Program-made: the position numbers and the translations under genes
Notes under the pieces: generated by a model
What the model was told of the DNA's origin: nothing
Seen by the model: the letters and a program-made list of their open reading frames with translations, nothing else
The model's database searches: none
Shown: positions 1,459 through 10,137 of the stretch, piece after piece
Layout of the letters: each line of letters opens with the position of its first letter
How positions within the stretch are numbered: the stretch's first letter is position 1
IMG/VR virus record: IMGVR_UViG_2711768050_000003
Strand: one strand, 5' to 3'
Length of the DNA: 35,951 nucleotides
Source: a virus
Lineage: Duplodnaviria; Heunggongvirae; Uroviricota; Caudoviricetes

Positions 1459-2622
1459 TTACACATCATTAGTACCTTCCTTATTTATTGACTGGGACAA
1501 ATTTGGGACCGATGGGTTCAGGATCGAGTCTATTTGCCGTGCGTGTTCGGTAAGGTGATTAGGTGCAAGGTGAGCATATCGACGAACCATTTCGATAGAC
1601 TCCCAGCCTCCCATTTCCTGTAACACTGACAACGGGACTCCGGCTTGAACCAGCCAACTTGCCCAGGTGTGTCTCAGGTCGTGAAATCTGAAATCATCAA
1701 TACCAGCCCGTCTCAGCGCCGCTTTCCAGGCTGTGTTTGCGTCATACCGCATCTTCCTTACTGTTGGCGCTTTCGTTCCGTCTGGTTTGGTACAGCTTTC
1801 CTTGTACACAAATACCCAACGGTGATGATTCCCGATTTGTTTTTTCAAAACGCGACATGCAGTATCATTCAGCGCAACGCCGATTGCGCGGTTTGATTTA
1901 CTCTCTTCCGGGTTTATCCATGCCACCCGGCGCTGCATATCTATTTGTTGCCATTCAAGGTTGATGATGTTCGAGCGTCTTAAGCCTGTTGCCAGTGCAA
2001 ATTCAACAACAGACTTTAATGGCTCCGGACATTCATCAATCAGCCTTTGTGCTTCATGGGGCTCCAGCCAGCGGATCCGTTTATTCTTTGGTTGAGGCAC
2101 TTTAATAATTGGTGCCTTATCCAGCATTTTCCATTCACGCTCTGCGGCTCTTAGTAGGGCCTTTATAAATGAAAGATGCGTAGCCTTCGTTGCAACGGAC
2201 GCTGGTTTTGGCGTGTATTCTGGAACAGGTTTCCCTTTTTTTCTGCATGCTTCTGCCCTGAGTTTCCAGTTTTCCTCATGACGCCGGTTCGTCATTTTCT
2301 GCATTGCTGAATAAATTTTTGATTCAGTAATGTCTCTTAGTTGCATTCCTGCGAAATGTTGAAGCCAGAATCCGATCCGGCTTTTGTCATCGTCCAGTGA
2401 TTTTTTATGTGCTTTCTCTTCAAGCCACCTGACACATGCTTCCTCGAACGTTATATCAGGTATTTCACCAAGTTTACTGACCCGCCATGCTTCAGCCTTT
2501 AGCTTGTCATGGAGTTCTGTCGCCTGCCTTTTGTCCTTTGTTCCAAGAGACTGTTTAAATCTTTTACCGTTCGGCAATGTGAAACTGGCGTACCATATTT
2601 CACCTCTGCGGAAGAGTGACAT
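1459..2622 (-). CDS. int: phage integrase, tyrosine recombinase
   Basis: 387 aa; N-terminus [14 protein letters not shown] typical of lambdoid integrases; C-terminal catalytic motifs ([18 protein letters not shown] with the Tyr); adjacent to the tRNA. Confidence 0.9.
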
Positions 2623-2849
2623 TTTCTTTCCTCTGTTATGCCATCACCCGCGCTCACCTGGACAGTATGCAGCGGAGACTGAAGAGCCGCAATGCAGGCT
2701 TGTCGTGTTGTGAGGTAAGGAGATTTATTCTTAGTGGGATCTTTGCGTGTTGCCTGAAGACGCCCTGTGCGTATCCAGTTAATAGCAGTCGGTCTGGATA
2801 TCTTGAGAAAATGACAGGCCTCATCGAGTGTGAGGCTGTATGGCTCCAT
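2499..2849 (-). CDS. xis: excisionase-like HTH protein (AlpA/Xis family)
   Basis: Internal ATG at 2849 gives [31 protein letters not shown], a typical excisionase HTH; ATGA overlap with the upstream gene stop. The frame stays open to 2499, so it overlaps int by 124 nt. Confidence 0.55.
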
Positions 2850-3193
2850 TATTTCACCTCTTGCTGTGACATTGTTGAAAAACGGATACCAGCTCGTTGC
2901 TGCCAGACGATCCAACTGAGAGTCATATCCCATGCCATGTATTCGTTATCGCCGTTTTTTGCTCTCCGACGATCGACTGTTTTACCGAAACGCTTTTCCA
3001 TAAATAATTCATAGGCTGCGCGTTCATCTGGCTCAACTTCCAGAGATGCCAGTGCAATCCGTGCCAGTTCTAAATCATTTTCAAGCTCAGCGCGAATCTC
3101 AGCGAATGCACTCTGTGTTAAGGCGAACTCAATGCTCTGCACTTTATTCCGTGCGCGCTCAAGCAGTGCATGGTAGTTAATTTCGGTTGTCAT
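2849..3193 (-). CDS. hypothetical early protein
   Basis: 114-aa ORF with GAGGTAGGGG RBS; ATGA-type overlaps with both neighbouring genes suggest translational coupling. Confidence 0.5.
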   Translation of the reverse strand: MTTEINYHALLERARNKVQSIEFALTQSAFAEIRAELENDLELARIALASLEVEPDERAAYELFMEKRFGKTVDRRRAKNGDNEYMAWDMTLSWIVWQQRAGIRFSTMSQQEVK

Positions 3194-4062
3194 ACCCCTA
3201 CCTCTTCGAATTCCAATTGATCACCCCAGATTTCACATGACTCTGAACACGAACCGGTATCGAATCGCCTGGCCTGTACCATCGCCTGATACAAATTTCT
3301 GTAGTCGCTGTTGGCAGACATTCTGGCAATTCCGTCAAGCGTCAGGTGACCACGGTACATAATGTCTTTACCTGTTCTGCGATGACCATCCCTGACGTGT
3401 TTGCCTGTAACCAGCTCATTAAAAACTCGCATCAGACCTGGTTCGTCTTTACATGCAAGCCCCAGCTTTTGCGTTGACTTTTTGATGCAGAAAACACAGT
3501 TCCCGAGATGCTCCGGGATTTGCAAATCAAAAGGTTGTTTTCGCCACCACCGGATAACATCCGACTTATCAAAATCTGATAGCTCGGCAAGATACCGGAC
3601 GCCCGATTTCGGTTTCAGCCTACGGGGTTCGTCTGCACGAATACCCAGCCATGTGATGTAATTACCTCGCCCGAAATGGTTATCGCAGTATTTCGTGAAA
3701 GGGATGAGTTTTAGCCTGTCAGTACAGAACGCGCCGCCGATGTATGGCGTGCCGTACTTTTTAACCATGTCCATAAACGGTTTAAGCACCGGCATTCGTG
3801 TCTGAATATCCTTTGGCTCCCATTCTGTATAACCATTTGGCTGCCCAAGCTCAGGATTTATATCGACCTGTAACAAAGTTAGTGGTATGTCCCAGAACTT
3901 TACAACCTCCCGGATAAAGCGGTATGTCAGCGGATGTTCGCAACCGGTATCCATAAAGATGTAGCAGACGTTATTGCCAGCCTTTCTTTGTTCTTCCATC
4001 AGGTGAACAAGATATGCGGATGTTCTCCCGCCAGAAAAACTAACTACATGAGTTATGCACAT
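3190..4062 (-). CDS. phosphoadenosine phosphosulfate (PAPS) reductase-family protein, phage type
   Basis: N-terminal VVSFSGGRTSAY PP-loop-like motif typical of the PAPS-reductase/ATP-PPase fold; start chosen at the ATG just before the motif (4062), alternative start at 4179. Confidence 0.55.
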   Translation of the reverse strand: MCITHVVSFSGGRTSAYLVHLMEEQRKAGNNVCYIFMDTGCEHPLTYRFIREVVKFWDIPLTLLQVDINPELGQPNGYTEWEPKDIQTRMPVLKPFMDMVKKYGTPYIGGAFCTDRLKLIPFTKYCDNHFGRGNYITWLGIRADEPRRLKPKSGVRYLAELSDFDKSDVIRWWRKQPFDLQIPEHLGNCVFCIKKSTQKLGLACKDEPGLMRVFNELVTGKHVRDGHRRTGKDIMYRGHLTLDGIARMSANSDYRNLYQAMVQARRFDTGSCSESCEIWGDQLEFEEVGV

Positions 4063-4589
4063 TTGCGTAATTCCGATAACTCGTTGAAGCGTTCCATAAA
4101 CATCCCGTAGGCATGGCCCGGTGCCAGTGGAATAACTTTGAACATCTCTGTTGCCGGGATACCTTCCAGTACAGGCCATAAAGAGCCATCATCAAGCCCG
4201 AGATCACGGCGTTCGGTTGCCAGCATAATGAGATCGGCATATTTCACTGGCGTGCTCATAACAGGAGGTAACCCGTATTTCTCACGGATTACTGCATCTA
4301 TTTTTTCTTCCATCCGTTTATAGTCAGGAAGAAGGCGTTTCAGTGGTGCGGGGATGTCCTGGCAATACGCTTCTGTTGCATCATGCATTAACGCTTCAAA
4401 AGCAAATTCCTGCGGCACCAGCTGGCTGCAAAGCACCGCATGTTGGGCGACACTGTAGAAGTGAGAAAGATGACCGGCAAAGCGACAGATATTTGAAAGA
4501 GAAACCGCGATATCGTTAATCACGATGTCGTCTTTATTTATCTTGTCATAATAAAAATGCTTCCCGGAAAAAGTTTTAATAAATGACAT
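4053..4589 (-). CDS. HD-domain phosphohydrolase (YfdR-like 5'-deoxynucleotidase family)
   Basis: 178 aa from the ATG at 4589, preceded by a GGAG RBS; HD-superfamily residues (ICRFAGH, MHDATEAY); length matches remembered E. coli prophage protein YfdR. Confidence 0.65.
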   Translation of the reverse strand: MSFIKTFSGKHFYYDKINKDDIVINDIAVSLSNICRFAGHLSHFYSVAQHAVLCSQLVPQEFAFEALMHDATEAYCQDIPAPLKRLLPDYKRMEEKIDAVIREKYGLPPVMSTPVKYADLIMLATERRDLGLDDGSLWPVLEGIPATEMFKVIPLAPGHAYGMFMERFNELSELRKCA

Positions 4590-4716
4590 TTTGTTCTCCA
4601 CGTATATGCGCTGCACCGCGCTGAGTTTGGGTAAAAGGAAGCCCTCACCATCCGGTGATTATTGAGTTAATTACGTTTCCATAAATGCCCCCGCAGGGGC
4701 ATTTGCAGTAATGAAA

Positions 4717-5541
4717 TCAGGCGGTGAAAGTGCCAATAAAGGTTTCTACTTTGCTGTCTTTGAATTTCTCAACAAGCAGATCACGAAATTCGTTAGCCAT
4801 ATCTTCCTGCACTGCTTCCAGCTGAATAATGCGCAGAACCAGTACAGGACGATCGCCAGTGATAATGCTGAGGCGTAATTTAAACGGACGTTCTTTCAGA
4901 CCTTCAAACGGAACGCATTTAAATTCAAATGCCACTGGCATAATGTCTTTGGTCTTCGCTTCGACAGATTCCATCAGGGAGCGTTTGCCGCTGAAGTCAT
5001 TATCTTCAAAATCAGCGGTCTGGTTTGCTTCAATCGTGATTTTACGGATTGCCGCAGCCGCTTTTGTTGCCTGAATGGCGTCACCATTAGCATCAAAGCC
5101 CACAAGGTAGTCGGCCCAGTCTTCAATCCATTCTGCCAGTGATTTCTGGGAGTTACGCTCGCCGTTAACAGACAACAGGGCAGAGAACGGTGCTGTCTTT
5201 TTCAGTTTGAGAGTGGCGGTGTTATCTGCGTGACCTGGTTCATCAATAGTACCTAGGTTAAGCACACTGACGGCACGCATATTATCAGCATCGATAAAGC
5301 AGCGGGTGCCTTCATCTGCAAGATCTTTAGAATAACGGGTAAAGTCATCGATGCTGGCAGTGGAAAGCGCACCACGGAAACGGAAGCGATTTAAATTAAA
5401 TTTTTCCAGATCATGAATGCGGAAATTCTCAGGCAATGCCACAGCATCGGCACCAATCTTACTGATAATTTCATTAACACCCTGAGCAGAAATAAGGGCA
5501 TGGATTTGATTAATTGCGGTTGCGTCTAAGTTCTGAGACAT
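4717..5541 (-). CDS. YfdQ-like prophage protein (DUF2303-type), function unknown
   Basis: 274 aa, GAGGAC RBS; sits next to the YfdR-like and YfdP-like genes as in the remembered CPS-53 yfdP-yfdQ-yfdR module. Confidence 0.55.
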
Positions 5542-5606
5542 AATAAGTCCTCACTATATAAAGATATTCAGTGATGAGATAAATAATCAGTTAATTAAAA
5601 ACGATA

Positions 5607-5969
5607 TTAACGACCTGCTGCGCGGAGTTTTCCGTCAGGTTCACCGGCAAGAGTCAGCAACTGTCCCTGGTCTTCCTGCAGAATAGTCAGGCGACCACCG
5701 CGATTGACATACATCGGCGTTTCGGTGGTGTCTTCTTCGGAAATTTTCCCGCGGTTAGTCGGGCGAACATATGAGAGTTTGTGTTTGATTTTCACTCGGT
5801 TCTCATCAAACGGTTCGATTTCTAGGTTGAGCGAGACCTTACCTTTGGTTTTCGTGTTCATCACACCGGAAGCGACTTCACTGAGTACTGCGCCGATTTT
5901 GGTTTCAAATACGCCGCCGTCCAGCTCCCTGATAAATGCCTGCACATCAGTACTGCGTTCGCTAGCCAT
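5607..5969 (-). CDS. YfdP-like prophage protein, function unknown
   Basis: Start at the internal ATG (MASERSTDVQ...) with GAGGAG RBS; the longer 226-aa six-frame ORF would run through GC-rich structured DNA with junk-like translation. Confidence 0.5.
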   Translation of the reverse strand: MASERSTDVQAFIRELDGGVFETKIGAVLSEVASGVMNTKTKGKVSLNLEIEPFDENRVKIKHKLSYVRPTNRGKISEEDTTETPMYVNRGGRLTILQEDQGQLLTLAGEPDGKLRAAGR

Positions 5970-6017
5970 TTTGCTGCTCCTCATCATATCGACCCTGCAA
6001 GGCCGGTTAGTTTCTCC

Positions 6018-6106
6018 ACAAAACAGAGAAGAACACCTGCGGTGACTGCCGCCCGGATGGATTGGGTTATGAGCCCGTCGTCCGGTGATGCTCTTCTCTG
6101 TTTTGT
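6018..6106. repeat. Long inverted repeat: 14-15-bp perfect stem (ACAAAACAGAGAAG / CTTCTCTGTTTTGT) closing a ~60-nt GC-rich loop
   Basis: Direct reading of both arms; located 48 nt upstream of the YfdP-like start in the leftward transcript. Confidence 0.6.
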
Positions 6107-6115
6107 AAAAAGGAC

Positions 6116-6150
6116 GGTACCAGCCGGAAGCAAGGGTACAAGCTGGTACC
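6116..6150. repeat. Perfect 9-bp hairpin GGTACCAGC-N17-GCTGGTACC containing GGTACAAG
   Basis: Direct reading; three GGTAC(A/C) motifs, and GGTACAAG is identical to one arm of the cI/cro operator palindrome at 7975..7995. Confidence 0.55.
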
Positions 6151-6375
6151 GCCAAGACTACACACAGCATAAAGTTGTGGTGCCGGGTGCCTCCCGGTGC
6201 CTGGCGAAGGTTGCACACCAGGCGGGTGGGTATCCACAGAAGGTCGACTGTCAGCCTCAACCTTAACCCGCGTGCGCTGAGCCGCATTCACCACAACGCT
6301 AAGGATTCTCTCTGGTTGAAAATACTTAGCTGTTATGTGCCTGCTTTTAGCCACATCAGGCGAGGTGGACCTAGT

Positions 6376-6422
6376 TATTCCCCAACAACAAGGATTCGGT
6401 TAATCTGGTTATCCCCAACAAC
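6376..6422 (+). repeat. Direct repeat TTAT(T)CCCCAACAAC x2 immediately upstream of the 6438 gene
   Basis: Copies at 6376..6390 and 6409..6422; the second ends about 16 nt before the ATG. Possible regulator-binding or promoter element. Confidence 0.5.
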
Positions 6423-6437
6423 GCAAAAGGAAAAGAA

Positions 6438-6872
6438 ATGTCCGGTAATATCTATACGCTGTACAAATCCCACTGTGAAAATGTTGGAAAGTATCGGGGC
6501 ATTGAAATCAGTGGGGTAGTGTCATCAGTCGAAATAAGCAAAGTTGAATCAAGGGCAACATTACTTACTCTTTTGGACCTTGTCTTACATGAGCACCGGA
6601 AGAAATTCGGCACTCCCTATAATCAGTTGAATGGGAAAAAGGCTCTGGTTCACCTTATTCTGATGAAGCATCACTGGATGCCAAAACAGATTAATGAGAT
6701 GAAATTTGATGAACTTCTTCTTTCAATTCAGGATGAACTCACACTTGATAAAATAAGCGTAACCGCCCAGAAATTTTTAGATTATCGAGACTGGAGATCA
6801 CAAATTCATCACTTTGATGATTTTGACGAAAATGAATGGGATCCTAATTTGTCTGCACAATATCTAAAGTAA
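6438..6872 (+). CDS. hypothetical protein, AT-rich cargo gene transcribed opposite to the early-left operon
   Basis: 144 aa with AAAGGAAAAG RBS; visibly AT-rich against GC-rich flanks; 3' end overlaps the convergent 6844..7050 gene by 29 nt; no recognisable motifs. Confidence 0.55.
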   Translation: MSGNIYTLYKSHCENVGKYRGIEISGVVSSVEISKVESRATLLTLLDLVLHEHRKKFGTPYNQLNGKKALVHLILMKHHWMPKQINEMKFDELLLSIQDELTLDKISVTAQKFLDYRDWRSQIHHFDDFDENEWDPNLSAQYLK

Positions 6873-7050
6873 CATCCTGTGATAAAACCGTGATTTCCTG
6901 ATCCAGTTTTTTTAAGGAGTCTATTGTTTCCTGTCGATAAGACAGCACTTCACGAAGCTGGTTTATAGCTGCCAGCTTCTTTGTCATCCACTCATAAATT
7001 TCCTCATCTGTGTAGCCAGGCGCGACGATTTTGGGTTCTGTTTTGTGCAT
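6844..7050 (-). CDS. hypothetical protein, first gene of the leftward PL operon
   Basis: 68 aa from the internal ATG (MHKTEPKIV...) with GGAGA RBS; lies directly downstream of the predicted PL. Confidence 0.45.
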   Translation of the reverse strand: MHKTEPKIVAPGYTDEEIYEWMTKKLAAINQLREVLSYRQETIDSLKKLDQEITVLSQDVTLDIVQTN

Positions 7051-7109
7051 TTCACATCTCCTCAAGTTATCAGTTACTTGTTGATGGGGACCAGATTGTT
7101 AAAGAGCTA

Positions 7110-7132
7110 AGCGTCCTGTAGGGCGCTTTTTT
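7110..7132 (+). terminator. rho-independent terminator, rightward
   Basis: AGCGTCC-TGTA-GGGCGCT stem-loop followed by TTTTTT; no U-tract on the opposite strand. Confidence 0.5.
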
Positions 7133-7284: not shown

Positions 7285-7959
7285 TTAGGCTTTGATTTTG
7301 TATCTTCTTGGTTTTCCTGAGAAAATCACTGTACCAATTATAGAGCAATTACCGTTGATCTTAATGTAAGGCTCAGGCCAGTTTGGGTTTAACGCTTTGA
7401 GATAACGCTGTGTCCCATCTTCTATCAACCTTTTGAAGGTGGTTTCGCCTGTATCGTGCATCAATGCAATAACGTCGTCACCGTGGCAGGCAGGTACTTC
7501 AGGATCGACAAAAATCATGTCTCCCGGGCGGTACTCATCAATCATTGAATCACCTATCACCCGCAAGATATAAGTCATTTCCCCACAGGGTACAGGGCAG
7601 GGATACGTTTCTGCTGTGCTCAAATCAACCTCAGAATATCCAACTTCTTTCCATGCTCCGGCCTGTACCCATGATATGACAGGGACTAATGTGATTTGTT
7701 TATTAGTGATTGAAACATCAGGTTTTTTTGTGATGTTCGTTGTCTGGTGTTCTTGATCGAGCCATCCGACAGGCAGGTCGAAACATTTTTCGATGTGTCG
7801 TGCCATGCTGTCACCGATATTTTTAGTAGCACCATCTCCCATAAACCTGCTGGTCTGGGTTGGCTCGCGATCAATCATAGTGGCAAAGGAAGAATTCCCG
7901 CCAACACCATCTCTCAGTTTTCTGGCGTTAGACCGCCGGATGTCATGGATTGTTTTCAT
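7285..7959 (-). CDS. cI: CI-like repressor (HTH plus S24 LexA-like autopeptidase domain)
   Basis: 224 aa; C-terminal domain with GDSM (Ser) and FKRL (Lys) dyad; divergent from the cro-like gene across an operator-rich intergenic region. Confidence 0.85.
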   Translation of the reverse strand: MKTIHDIRRSNARKLRDGVGGNSSFATMIDREPTQTSRFMGDGATKNIGDSMARHIEKCFDLPVGWLDQEHQTTNITKKPDVSITNKQITLVPVISWVQAGAWKEVGYSEVDLSTAETYPCPVPCGEMTYILRVIGDSMIDEYRPGDMIFVDPEVPACHGDDVIALMHDTGETTFKRLIEDGTQRYLKALNPNWPEPYIKINGNCSIIGTVIFSGKPRRYKIKA

Positions 7960-7974
7960 AACGAAATTAAAACC

Positions 7975-8044
7975 CTTGTACCGTTAAGGTACAAGTATCT
8001 TGAAGGTTCATTTCAATCATGTAATATGTACACCGGAGGTACAT
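7975..8044. promoter_or_regulatory. OR/PR/PRM-like immunity switch region
   Basis: Perfect palindrome CTTGTACC-GTTAA-GGTACAAG (7975..7995); second GTAC-centred site TGTACACCGGAGGTACA (8027..8043); rightward promoter -35 TTGAAG (8000..8005), 16-nt spacer, -10 TAATAT (8022..8027). Confidence 0.5.
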
Positions 8045-8049
8045 ATTGT

Positions 8050-8250
8050 ATGAAAGCGTATTGGGACTCTTTAACCAAAGAACAGCAGGGCGAGTTGGCC
8101 GGAAAAGTTGGCTCAACACCTGGCTACTTACGGCTGGTTTTCAATGGCTATAAAAAAGCCAGTTTTGTGCTGGCTAAAAAACTTGAGCAATGCACGTCAG
8201 GTGCAATTACGAAATCTGACTTAAGACCGGATATCTATCCGAAAGATTAG
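8050..8250 (+). CDS. cro: Cro-like repressor (YdaS/Cro family HTH)
   Basis: 66 aa from the ATG at 8050 with GGAGG RBS; divergent from cI; resembles YdaS-type Cro proteins. Confidence 0.65.
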   Translation: MKAYWDSLTKEQQGELAGKVGSTPGYLRLVFNGYKKASFVLAKKLEQCTSGAITKSDLRPDIYPKD

Positions 8251-8281
8251 CAGAACACTTTCAATTTTTAACCACAGAACG

Positions 8282-8851
8282 ATGAGGCTAACCGTGGGTA
8301 AGCATCACTGGAAAATAGAAAAACAGCCTGAGTGGTACGTGAAAGCTGTCAGAAAAACTATCGCGGCGTTGCCGGGTGGTTACGCTGAAGCGGCTGACTG
8401 GCTCGATGTAACAGAAAACGCTTTATTCAACCGCCTTCGTGCAGATGGCGATCAGATTTTCCCGCTGGGATGGGCAATGGTTTTACAGCGTGCTGGTGGC
8501 ACTCACTTCATTGCTGATGCTGTGGCGCAGTCTGCAAATGGCGTCTTTGTGTCTCTTCCTGACGTCGAGGATGTGGACAACGCCGATATCAACCAACGCC
8601 TGCTGGAAGTCATTGAACAGATCGGCAGTTATTCAAAACAGATTCGTTCAGCAATCGAAGACGGTGTAGTGGAACCGTATGAGAAGACAGCAATTAACGA
8701 CGAGCTGTATCTCTCAATTTCGAAGCTGCAGGAGCATGCAGCACTTGTCTACAAAATTTTTTGCATTTCAGAAAGTAATGACGCCCGCGAGTGTGCAGCT
8801 CCGGGCGTCGTGGCGTCGATTGCTTCTGGTTGTGGAGAAACTAACGCATGA
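8282..8851 (+). CDS. CII-like / YdaT-type early regulatory protein
   Basis: 189 aa in the position between cro and the replication gene occupied by cII-like regulators in lambdoid prophages; family assignment from memory only. Confidence 0.4.
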
Positions 8852-9186
8852 ACAGTTTAACAACACACTACCGTCGCTCGCAACTGATTGCGCTTCCTGT
8901 ACCGGGTGGAAAAGCGAAGGTGGAATATTGCTATGCAGTGAATGTACCAGGTGACAGGGAAATTGTAACCCACAGCTTTGCAGAGTGGGCTGTGGGTGAT
9001 TTCAACCGGCAGAAGGAGACAGTCCTTTGCGACAAGTTAACCGCTGGTTCAAAGATCACTACGGAGTGCCCGTCAGAGTCATTCGTTGGGAGCCGGAAAC
9101 ACAACGGGTTATCTACCTCCGCGAAGGTTATGAGCATGAATGCTTCAGTCCGCTCGAACAGTTTCGTCGTAAATTCAGGGAAATAG
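8848..9186 (+). CDS. hypothetical protein (possibly only the first ~60 codons are real)
   Basis: 112-aa ORF with ATGA overlap to the upstream gene; the C-terminal half is Ser-rich and low-complexity and overlaps a better-looking frame. Confidence 0.3.
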
Positions 9187-9206
9187 AGGTCGGTCATGAG
9201 CACTAA
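9027..9206 (+). CDS. small hypothetical protein with TTG start, missed by the ORF track
   Basis: AGGAG (9014..9018), 8-nt spacer, TTG at 9027; 59 codons ([40 protein letters not shown]...) ending 11 nt into the replication gene; no in-frame ATG. Confidence 0.35.
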
Positions 9207-10137
9207 ATTAACCGGCTATGTATGGGATGGTTGCGCTGCATCAGGCATGAAGTTATCCAGCGTGGCAATTATGGCCCGCCTGGCTGATTTCAGTAATGAC
9301 GAAGGTGTGTGCTGGCCATCAATTGAAACCATTGCCCGCCAGATTGGCGCGGGGATGAGTACCGTCAGAACGGCTATCGCACGGCTGGAAGCTGAAGGCT
9401 GGTTAACGCGTAAGGCGCGTCGCCAGGGTAACCGCAATGCGTCGAATGTTTATCAGCTTAACGTTGCGAAGCTTCAGGCAGCGGCATTTTCTCAACTGTC
9501 AGATTCTGACCCGTCAAAATCTGACGCATCAAAATCTGACCCGTCAAAATTTGATGCGTCGAAATCTGGCAAAAAAGCGGGTTTTCACCCGTCAGAATCT
9601 GGCGGGGATCCGTCAGTAAAATCAAAACATGATCCGTCAGATAAAAATACTTCTCGTCCGGACGCTTCGCAACCGGACACGCAGACGGCTGAACAGGAGT
9701 TTTTAACTCGCCATCCTGATGCGGTTGTATTCAGCCCTAAAAAGCGCCAGTGGGGAACGCAGGATGATTTGACCTGCGCACAGTGGCTCTGGAAAAAAAT
9801 CATCGCCCTGTACGAGCAGGCCGCCGAATGTGACGGCGAGGTGGTTCGTCCCAAAGAACCGAACTGGACAGCCTGGGCAAACGAAATTCGCCTGATGTGT
9901 GTGCAGGATGGTCGTACTCACAAACAAATCTGCGAGATGTACAGCCGCGTCAGCCGCGATCCGTTCTGGTGCCGTAACGTGCTCAGCCCGTCGAAGCTGC
10001 GGGAAAAATGGGATGAGCTTTCCCTGCGCTTATCGCCGTCCGTCAGCACGCACACAGAAAAACGCGAAGACCCGTACTTCAAATCCAGTTACGACAACGT
10101 GGACTACAGCCAGATCCCGGCAGGATTCAGGGGGTGA
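9196..10137 (+). CDS. replication initiation protein (N-terminal HTH, internal iteron region, DnaT-like C-terminus)
   Basis: 313 aa; N-terminal HTH (IETIARQIGAGMSTVRTAIARLEAEGWL); gene body contains tandem 15-bp iterons as in lambda O. Confidence 0.65.
   Translation: MSTKLTGYVWDGCAASGMKLSSVAIMARLADFSNDEGVCWPSIETIARQIGAGMSTVRTAIARLEAEGWLTRKARRQGNRNASNVYQLNVAKLQAAAFSQLSDSDPSKSDASKSDPSKFDASKSGKKAGFHPSESGGDPSVKSKHDPSDKNTSRPDASQPDTQTAEQEFLTRHPDAVVFSPKKRQWGTQDDLTCAQWLWKKIIALYEQAAECDGEVVRPKEPNWTAWANEIRLMCVQDGRTHKQICEMYSRVSRDPFWCRNVLSPSKLREKWDELSLRLSPSVSTHTEKREDPYFKSSYDNVDYSQIPAGFRG
9505..9650 (+). repeat. Origin-like iteron array inside the replication gene
   Basis: Tandem 15-bp units TCTGACCCGTCAAAA, TCTGACGCATCAAAA, TCTGACCCGTCAAAA, TTTGATGCGTCGAAA (9505..9564), then degenerate CCGTCAG copies and an A-rich tract. 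Confidence 0.6.

Follow-up and report, generated by a model that had tools for sequence, protein, structure and literature searches.

Four genes on one strand, lying between the excisionase gene and the immunity region of a lambdoid prophage, raise the question of whether they form a single functional module. They occupy positions 3190-5969 of the stretch of DNA analysed here (IMG/VR virus record IMGVR_UViG_2711768050_000003; one strand of 35,951 nucleotides, hereafter the window, to whose coordinates all positions refer), and a first-pass annotation made from the sequence alone had described them as a conserved, tightly coupled module without an established role. With regard to location and gene identity that description was accurate: all four genes are on the minus strand at exactly those coordinates, between xis (2499-2933) and the cI gene of the immunity region (7285-7959), and the assignments to PAPS-reductase-like, HD-domain YfdR-like, YfdQ-like and YfdP-like families were each borne out by Pfam and PHROG profile searches. 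The idea of a single conserved four-gene module did not hold, as ninC, the PAPS-reductase-like gene, sits in a swappable cassette of ~1 kb and the invariant unit is the yfdP-yfdQ pair. The region combines the already described yfdPQR cluster with ninC, a gene known from lambda, through ordinary lambdoid mosaicism, and we consider it probable that it represents the mosaic early-left (pL-type) operon of an SfIV/SfV-like lambdoid prophage, situated at thrW next to proA and made up of two independent units. The first of these would be a CPS-53-type yfdP-yfdQ-yfdR cluster, essentially identical to that of E. coli K-12, with the obligate yfdP-yfdQ pair as its core and YfdR as a frequent but separable HD-domain phosphohydrolase. 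The second would be ninC, a nin-region gene shifted as a cassette into the place of yfdS. The features concerned, all on the minus strand, are as follows.

2849-3193, minus strand: yfdT-like gene, 114 amino acids (aa), phrog_660; the next gene of the same operon after ninC
3045-4055, minus strand: mosaic cassette of ~1 kb (ninC and the 5' part of the yfdT-like gene), from alignments with K-12 and SfIV
3190-4062, minus strand: ninC, 290 aa, PP-loop/PAPS-reductase superfamily
4053-4589, minus strand: yfdR, 178 aa, HD-domain phosphohydrolase
4683-4704, minus strand: hairpin within the yfdQ-yfdR gap
4717-5541, minus strand: yfdQ, 274 aa, DUF2303
5607-5969, minus strand: yfdP, 120 aa; upstream partner of yfdQ

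A gene pair and an exchangeable cassette

Gene identities, anatomy, cassette boundaries and co-occurrence were all established in the present analysis. Co-occurrence was examined in two samples: a viral sample of 80 IMG/VR loci around YfdQ homologues, all of them E. coli-type with YfdQ ~99% identical, and a species sample of 67 loci, one genome per GTDB species. Neighbours were scored by tblastn and by clustering of open reading frames (ORFs). YfdP was immediately upstream of YfdQ in 80/80 viral loci and, among species-level loci that have upstream sequence, in 62/64 by tblastn and 64/64 by ORF clustering; the pairing was kept even where YfdQ is only 36-43% identical (Rhodanobacter, Pontibacterium). 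YfdR was immediately downstream of YfdQ in 77/77 viral loci and in 44 of the 64 species-level loci (~70%), with four more in which it was more distant. A YfdS-like gene followed yfdR in 47/72 viral loci and 4/62 species-level loci, and NinC followed yfdR in 9/72 viral loci (E. coli) and 0/62 species-level loci. Among 5426 complete E. coli genomes, the yfdPQ segment was present in 2496 (46%), in up to seven copies, this ninC allele in 423 and the yfdR-ninC junction in 283. The claim that the combination recurs in enterobacterial prophages is therefore correct for yfdP-yfdQ(-yfdR), but the four-gene set is found in a minority of loci; the co-occurrence analysis that had been suggested as a check returned a constant yfdP-yfdQ pairing and only rare instances of NinC after yfdR.

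The connection drawn to the CPS-53 prophage of K-12 is a close one, with YfdP, YfdQ and YfdR being 97.5%, 100% and 98.3% identical to the K-12 proteins. The CPS-53 (KpLE1) genes yfdP-yfdQ-yfdR-yfdS-yfdT, after which torI(xis) comes in K-12, correspond to orf29-32 of SfV and gp30-34 of SfIV, and the window shares with them gene order, strand, the position just before the excisionase and integrase genes and the yfdR stop/start overlap. As a sequence feature the cluster is already known, the same genes being present at 97-100% protein identity in K-12, SfV and SfIV. At the DNA level, Shigella phage SfIV matches window 2400-7100 with 97.6% identity over 79% of that region, followed by SfV and several E. 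coli phages, and the likeness to SfIV is broken only at the ninC cassette. Thus YfdP, YfdQ and YfdR are encoded in the CPS-53 order on one strand, but yfdR is not followed by yfdS and then yfdT; the window has ninC instead of yfdS (DUF551) and the 5' part of yfdT. It also differs from CPS-53 in that its prophage is at thrW rather than argW and is an intact one that has its immunity, replication, lysis and structural genes.

The borders of the cassette are sharp. In DNA alignments, identity to K-12 and SfIV spans the yfdR stop and the next ATG (ATGyGCATrA), is then lost at once, and returns inside yfdT at about position 3045. The cassette takes the place of yfdS together with the 5' part of yfdT, and the switch falls exactly on the yfdR stop/start overlap; the 5' third of the yfdT-like gene belongs to the swapped cassette, and the C-terminal 81 aa of its product are 80% identical to K-12 YfdT. 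The slot holds yfdS in K-12, SfIV and most E. coli relatives, and tblastn found no YfdS homologue in the window, where ninC fills it. For one 294-aa protein cluster (P0261), the domains listed are DUF551, found in YfdS, as well as PAPS_reduct; this protein probably arose by recombination across the yfdS/ninC slot and would lack the PP-loop.

The description of the four genes as tightly coupled fits the promoter-distal half of the run, in which yfdR and ninC overlap by 10 nt (ATGTGCATAA) and the ninC stop overlaps the ATG of the yfdT-like gene by 4 nt (ATGA), but not the other half, in which gaps of 65 nt (yfdP-yfdQ) and 127 nt (yfdQ-yfdR) can be read from the sequence. The wider gap contains, 13 nt past the yfdQ stop, the GC-rich 9-bp hairpin at 4683-4704 (AAATGCCCC-tgcg-GGGGCATTT); it has no U-run after it and a terminator scan gave no call.

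Several mechanically called ORFs had to be shortened. The start of ninC is the ATG at 4062, as supported by the family alignment and lambda NinC (the ORF at 3190-4179 is too long), and that of yfdP is at 5969, since all homologues begin MASERST (the ORF at 5607-6287 is too long). For yfdR the start is most likely at 4589, giving 178 aa as in K-12 and SfIV, and not at the GTG at 4616 with which the mechanical ORF begins. In the SfIV record, gp34 is a long, 226-aa version of YfdP and gp35 is an antisense ORF; both are probably over-annotations.

NinC and a possible role against phosphorothioate-dependent restriction

The protein encoded by the fourth gene is 79% identical over 284 aa to NinC of lambda, both proteins being 290 aa long, and they have in common the PP-loop and all of the invariant cysteines. 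To judge from this full-length similarity, the gene is the lambda ninC orthologue, relocated to the early-left operon. The canonical home of ninC, in lambda and in O276, is the nin region beside ninB; lambda ninC lies between ninB and ninD in that early-right region, whereas the gene described here is found behind yfdR in the early-left operon. Consistent with relocation, ninC falls outside the interval from the replication genes to Q, and the nin region of the window (~10.1-13.1 kb) includes RusA and HNH genes but no ninB or ninC.

The family to which NinC belongs is clear from Pfam PAPS_reduct (PF01507; E value 5.9e-8, 33.4 bits against a cut-off of 22.5) and from the PHROG 'PAPS reductase' profiles phrog_33262 and phrog_424 (E values 1e-87 to 1e-90). 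Invariant features of NinC proteins are the PP-loop VVSFSGGRTSA, DTGxEH, Cys113, Cys126, GNCxFCxKK and GSCSESCE; the six invariant cysteines, which include CxxC and CxxxC motifs, are compatible with a metal cluster. We also considered whether NinC could be a CysH-type PAPS/APS reductase, that is, an auxiliary metabolic gene for sulfate assimilation, and rejected this: NCBIfam PRK02090 scored 19.8 bits against an equivalog cut-off of 154 and matched only the N-terminal 67 residues, not the C-terminal catalytic ECGLH Cys motif, and PAPS/APS reductases in the PDB matched the N-terminus only (E values 0.008-0.015).

A different connection emerged from PADLOC, in which NinC matched SspD (E value 1.6e-14, aa 5-152), BrxP (2.7e-4) and DndC (~6e-3). 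DndC and SspD are the 'PAPS reductase' sulfur-transfer components of DNA phosphorothioation (PMC12707154). The N-terminal PP-loop domain is shared between NinC and SspD/DndC/BrxP and only this half matches, whereas the C-terminal CxxC/CxxxC region is specific to NinC. The locus does not amount to a Dnd or Ssp system: among the seven early-left proteins scanned with PADLOC, no partner ATPase (DndD/SspC), DndE/SspB-like, DNA-binding or desulfurase-like protein was found, and the six neighbours of NinC (YfdP, YfdQ, YfdR and the yfdT-like, ECs1072 and phrog_1744 proteins) gave no PADLOC match.

There is a possible precedent for a NinC-like protein acting against phosphorothioate-based defence. Protein p0018 of Vibrio phage 44E38.1 is a NinC-Dam fusion whose N-terminal 285 aa are 55% identical to the window NinC and can be aligned with it end to end, motifs included. 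When the segment containing p0018 and p0019 (the latter without a homologue in the window) was moved into a sensitive phage, that phage was able to infect a Dnd+ host, and the authors named this an anti-Dnd system, tying it to the PAPS domain ('related at least in part'; Piel et al., bioRxiv 10.1101/2021.05.05.442762). Given the likeness to SspD and DndC and this anti-Dnd phenotype, which comes from the literature and belongs to a homologue-carrying segment, our best-supported guess is that NinC may function in counter-defence against phosphorothioate-dependent restriction; during infection it would counter such restriction as genetically suggested for the Vibrio-phage homologue. Several observations weigh against this reading. 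The anti-Dnd transfer involved two genes and a Dam fusion, such that the share of the PAPS-like domain was not isolated; p0018 has a C-terminal Dam methylase domain, whereas the window NinC is a stand-alone protein without a methylase domain, its 290 aa ending where the Dam domain of P0315 begins; and lambda ninC is dispensable in the laboratory. Nevertheless, for a classic, 40-year-old orphan gene of lambda, it is of interest that sequence similarity and one genetic experiment point to phosphorothioate-based immunity. The ninC allele of the window was also seen at 72 places on E. coli plasmids of ~90-115 kb.

YfdR and initiation of host replication

YfdR has the HD fold and the H...HD...D residues found in YfbR, the E. 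coli HD-domain 5'-deoxynucleotidase; its metal-binding motif consists of H50, H69-D70 and D119 (178-aa numbering, D119 being read from the sequence), and the H...HD motif aligned with that of the HD protein in PDB 2gz4 (E value 5e-13). A strong profile match was to phrog_318 (E value 1e-110), whose name, 'dNMP phosphatase', is a transferred annotation. Matches to Pfam YfbR-like (24.2 bits) and NCBIfam PRK03826 (19.8 bits) were just below the cut-off of 25.9 in the first case and far from that of 122 in the second. K-12 YfdR, 98.3% identical, is annotated as a 5'-deoxynucleotidase in RefSeq.

The statement that these genes lack an established role is outdated in part, for yfdR and for ninC with its anti-Dnd homologue. 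In K-12, purified YfdR binds domain I of DnaA, an interaction that depends on Phe46 and in which it competes with DiaA and DnaB (PMC4776307); DnaA binding has been reported for YfdR only and not for YfbR. The minimal multicopy set that suppresses hda-185 over-initiation is yfdQ and yfdR together with either yfdS or yfdT, and the same set in multicopy also inhibits initiation at oriC in wild-type cells (PMC4776307). These experiments, from which we take both DnaA binding and initiation inhibition, apply directly to the genes of the window because its YfdR and YfdQ are 98% and 100% identical to the K-12 proteins. By transfer from K-12, over-expressed YfdR, acting with YfdQ and YfdS or YfdT, would inhibit initiation at the host origin, and we infer a role during lytic growth in which host oriC initiation would be dampened, favoring the O-like replication system of the phage.

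This is a working model and a number of points count against it. Inhibition was seen in K-12 under multicopy over-expression, and an artefact is, by the authors' own account, possible; deletion of yfdQRST had no initiation phenotype; and yfdP was not needed in the initiation assay (PMC4776307), which means that the assay is silent on the invariant YfdP-YfdQ pair. Furthermore, since the window is without yfdS and its yfdT-like protein matches YfdT over the C-terminal two-thirds only, the required set, in which yfdQ and yfdR are joined by yfdS or yfdT, may be incomplete here. Nucleotide affinities of YfdR were reported to be far below YfbR's (PMC4776307), making a role in the dNMP pool doubtful.

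In 45-48 of 64 species-level loci, yfdPQ is accompanied by a CII-like gene, phrog_1170 and the O-like initiator (window 8282-10137); beside the O-like gene of the window we saw no P-like helicase loader. It is conceivable that DnaA binding by YfdR hints at a functional link to the O-like replication module, with plain synteny being an equally possible reason for the association.

The yfdP-yfdQ pair

For YfdP and YfdQ, our literature search found no reported biochemical activity. YfdP belongs to phrog_204 (E value 8e-50). YfdQ matches Pfam DUF2303 (PF10065; E value 4.3e-93) over profile positions 2-269 of 269, as well as phrog_210, and is a full-length, single-domain protein of ~270 aa as is typical for this family, which comprises ~1800 clusters at 50% identity and whose best-scoring 150 members are nearly all single-domain proteins of 260-290 aa. 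Pairing extends well beyond the Enterobacterales; in five distant phages, namely PA2, the Vibrio phages VvAW1 and 44E38.1, Pseudomonas phage pAN and Xylella phage Usme, the enterobacterial YfdP profile matched a small gene that lies immediately upstream of DUF2303 (E values 1e-25 to 1e-53). In these diverse gammaproteobacterial phages the neighbours of yfdPQ are SSB, DEDD/RNase T-type exonucleases and recombinases. In lambdoid phages a yfbR(yfdR)-yfdQ-yfdP cluster has been described as common in early-left operons, the function of yfdQ and yfdP being unknown (PMC12315714).

Structure prediction, another of the checks suggested at the outset, gave usable models for YfdQ (pLDDT 79) and YfdP (pLDDT 77); a Foldseek search of both against the PDB returned no match at E<=0.001 (best 0.17). 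One solved entry, PDB 9o7m ('YfdQ Protein'), matches YfdQ by sequence (E value 2e-44); it contains 36 chains of that sequence, and our literature search found no paper for it. The example chain is C, and at a guess chains A and B could be a different molecule. A profile search with the YfdP alignment found no YfdP homologue in the PDB, 9o7m included. In Burkholderia phage JC1, the DUF2303 protein was seen by mass spectrometry in virions purified on caesium chloride gradients, and its gene shares an early region with RecT and YqaJ (PMC9144972). In Vibrio phage 44E38.1 we found YfdP and YfdQ homologues, p0027 and p0028, at 7540-8828. To judge from its gene list, they appear to be the two proteins of unknown function in a 5.7-kb recombination-module segment linked by Piel et al. 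to escape from retron Ec48, the escape mutations themselves having been mapped to a neighbouring exonuclease (Piel et al., bioRxiv 10.1101/2021.05.05.442762).

We have also entertained a more specific version of the ideas set out above, in which YfdP and YfdQ would form an obligate complex of unseen fold, perhaps a large oligomer acting on DNA or replication proteins, that together with YfdR-DnaA binding would constitute a widespread phage 'host-origin shut-off' system, and in which stand-alone NinC, that of lambda included, would serve as counter-defence against phosphorothioate restriction. This is a tentative proposal that we would hold to be doubtful, any activity of YfdP or YfdQ being inferred only. 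What makes the pair of interest is its strict pairing and its reach, with ~46% of complete E. coli genomes carrying it, as do phages of Vibrio, Pseudomonas and Xanthomonas/Xylella. As the K-12 and lambda alleles are nearly the same as those of the window, the questions surrounding both yfdPQ and NinC are open to simple phage genetics.

Alternative explanations

The roles proposed in the first-pass annotation were nucleotide or DNA modification, dNTP pool manipulation and anti-defence, and these are reasonable gene by gene (anti-defence for ninC, manipulation of nucleotides or host replication for yfdR). As a joint pathway they are not. In such a nucleotide- or DNA-modification pathway the HD protein would supply or remove a substrate, the PP-loop enzyme would activate it and YfdP and YfdQ would be accessory, and one could point to the common strand of the four genes, to translational coupling of yfdR and ninC through their overlap, to nucleotide-handling folds in two of the four proteins, to the presence of the yfdR-ninC junction in 283 E. 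coli genomes and to Stx2a phages such as PA2, in which yfdPQ in a diverged form (52% identity) has a 92%-identical ninC two genes away. However, 63/72 E. coli viral loci and 62/62 species-level loci have no NinC beside yfdPQR, ninC has its canonical place in the nin region, and the gene that separates yfdQ and ninC in PA2 does not encode an HD protein. Moreover, the same 10-nt overlap serves yfdS in K-12, indicating that yfdR-ninC coupling is a property of the slot and not evidence of a shared pathway. The four-gene pathway is largely refuted by the co-occurrence counts, and we regard it as the least probable of the explanations considered. Only slightly less improbable is that YfdP and YfdQ, possibly with YfdR, are an unrecognised recombination module providing an annealase and/or end-processing activity. 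The cluster takes the place in the genome that exo-bet-gam has, we saw no known Rec genes from xis to cI, the window is Chi-rich (11 sites against 1.4 expected) like phages of the 'no Rec module' class, and elsewhere yfdPQ is found among SSB, exonuclease and recombinase genes. We found no likeness in sequence or fold between the pair and known annealases or exonucleases (single-strand annealing and Rec proteins such as Rad52, RecT, Erf and Sak4). In addition, PA2 has gam-recT-exo-ssb immediately upstream of yfdPQ, which argues that the pair is no stand-in for a missing Rec module, and a 2025 survey of lambdoid phages came to the same conclusion (PMC12315714).

Another scenario, unlikely in our view but less so than a recombination role, is that YfdP-YfdQ serves in anti-defence, for instance as a large oligomeric sponge or inhibitor that is made early, with yfdR and ninC as further anti-defence cargo. 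Consistent with this idea, (i) the pair is part of the early operon, within a mosaic accessory region that has a probable anti-Dnd gene alongside; (ii) the 36 YfdQ chains of the solved entry are compatible with a large assembly; (iii) yfdPQ is present in 46% of complete E. coli genomes, in up to seven copies, and (iv) the Vibrio-phage pair falls within the 5.7-kb segment by which phages escaping retron Ec48 differ from those that fail to do so. On the other hand, the retron escape mutations are in the exonuclease rather than in the yfdPQ homologues, there is no PADLOC or other match and no experimental link, and the strict pairing and near-constant size across phages of Enterobacterales, Vibrio, Pseudomonas and Xanthomonas/Xylella resemble a core DNA-transaction function more than the rapid turnover of anti-defence genes. 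Finally, the genes could be cargo that benefits the lysogen by increasing host stress tolerance and not lytic-cycle functions at all. Support for this comes from K-12, where deletion of CPS-53, yfdQ or yfdS raises sensitivity to hydrogen peroxide and deletion of yfdQ raises sensitivity to MMS (PMC4776307), and where yfdPQ mRNA is present in growing cells and the host factor SrsR binds upstream of yfdP (PMC9181523). Arguing against it, the genes of the window are behind a repressor-controlled early-left promoter region and a terminator-like element and should therefore be silent in a lysogen, and the pair is also kept in phages that do not integrate or look virulent. As CPS-53 has lost its immunity region and its SrsR boxes appear to be phage ori iterons, expression in K-12 is probably an accident of decay. 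We consider the lysogen explanation improbable, about as much so as the recombination module, and continue to favor a mosaic operon of two independent units.

Neighbouring elements

The remaining features of the left part of the window are as follows.

1-1254: proA, at the window start
1369-1444: thrW, tRNA-Thr(CGU), preceding the lambdoid prophage
1459-2622, minus strand: integrase gene
2499-2933, minus strand: excisionase gene (xis)
6104-6327, minus strand: STnc100-like structured RNA element, upstream of yfdP on the operon strand
6438-6872, plus strand: ECs1072-family gene, on the strand opposite to the operon
6844-7065, minus strand: small phrog_1744 gene
7285-7959, minus strand: cI repressor gene, S24-type

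To the right of cI are a CII-like gene, an O-like replication initiator gene, RusA, Q, and lysis and virion genes. Chi sites (GCTGGTGG) numbered 11 between 8492 and 27320, 10 of them on the plus strand, where shuffled sequences gave an expectation of 1.4. In the early-left region we saw no Red, RecET, Erf or Gam genes, and together with the richness in Chi this fits the 'no Rec module, Chi-rich' class of lambdoid phages (PMC12315714).

The element at 6104-6327, between the pL-proximal genes and yfdP, is a full-length match to Rfam RF02076 (STnc100) at 43.4 bits, below the gathering score of 47 (E value 4e-8). It ends in a terminator-like GGTACCAG...CTGGTACC hairpin (at about 6105-6150) followed by a U-run, and a weak DicF-like match overlaps its 3' end. 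The element was not found at the gathering score in eight distant yfdPQ loci; given this and the sub-threshold match, we rejected the notion of a conserved cross-taxon RNA upstream of yfdP and treat the element as an adjacent feature, not shown to be part of the module.

Between the putative pL (a promoter-like site at 7245-7218) and yfdP, the ECs1072-family gene forms an insertion that points the opposite way. It overlaps the end of the phrog_1744 gene, and terminator-like hairpins follow at 6954-6979 and 7109-7128. Its presence in some but not all of the near-identical E. coli loci makes it look like a moron.

Within the O-like gene (9196-10137), four 11-mers resembling TCAGATTTTGA are spaced at 15 bp (9499-9554) and resemble origin iterons. 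A search upstream of yfdP for SrsR boxes like those of K-12 found none at that place in the window, the boxes being inside the O-like gene: three of the four 11-mers match 'SrsR boxes' of the K-12 yfdO/yfdP spacer exactly and the fourth is very similar, four such boxes having been reported there (PMC9181523). The strongest SrsR site in K-12 may thus be the remnant phage origin of CPS-53.

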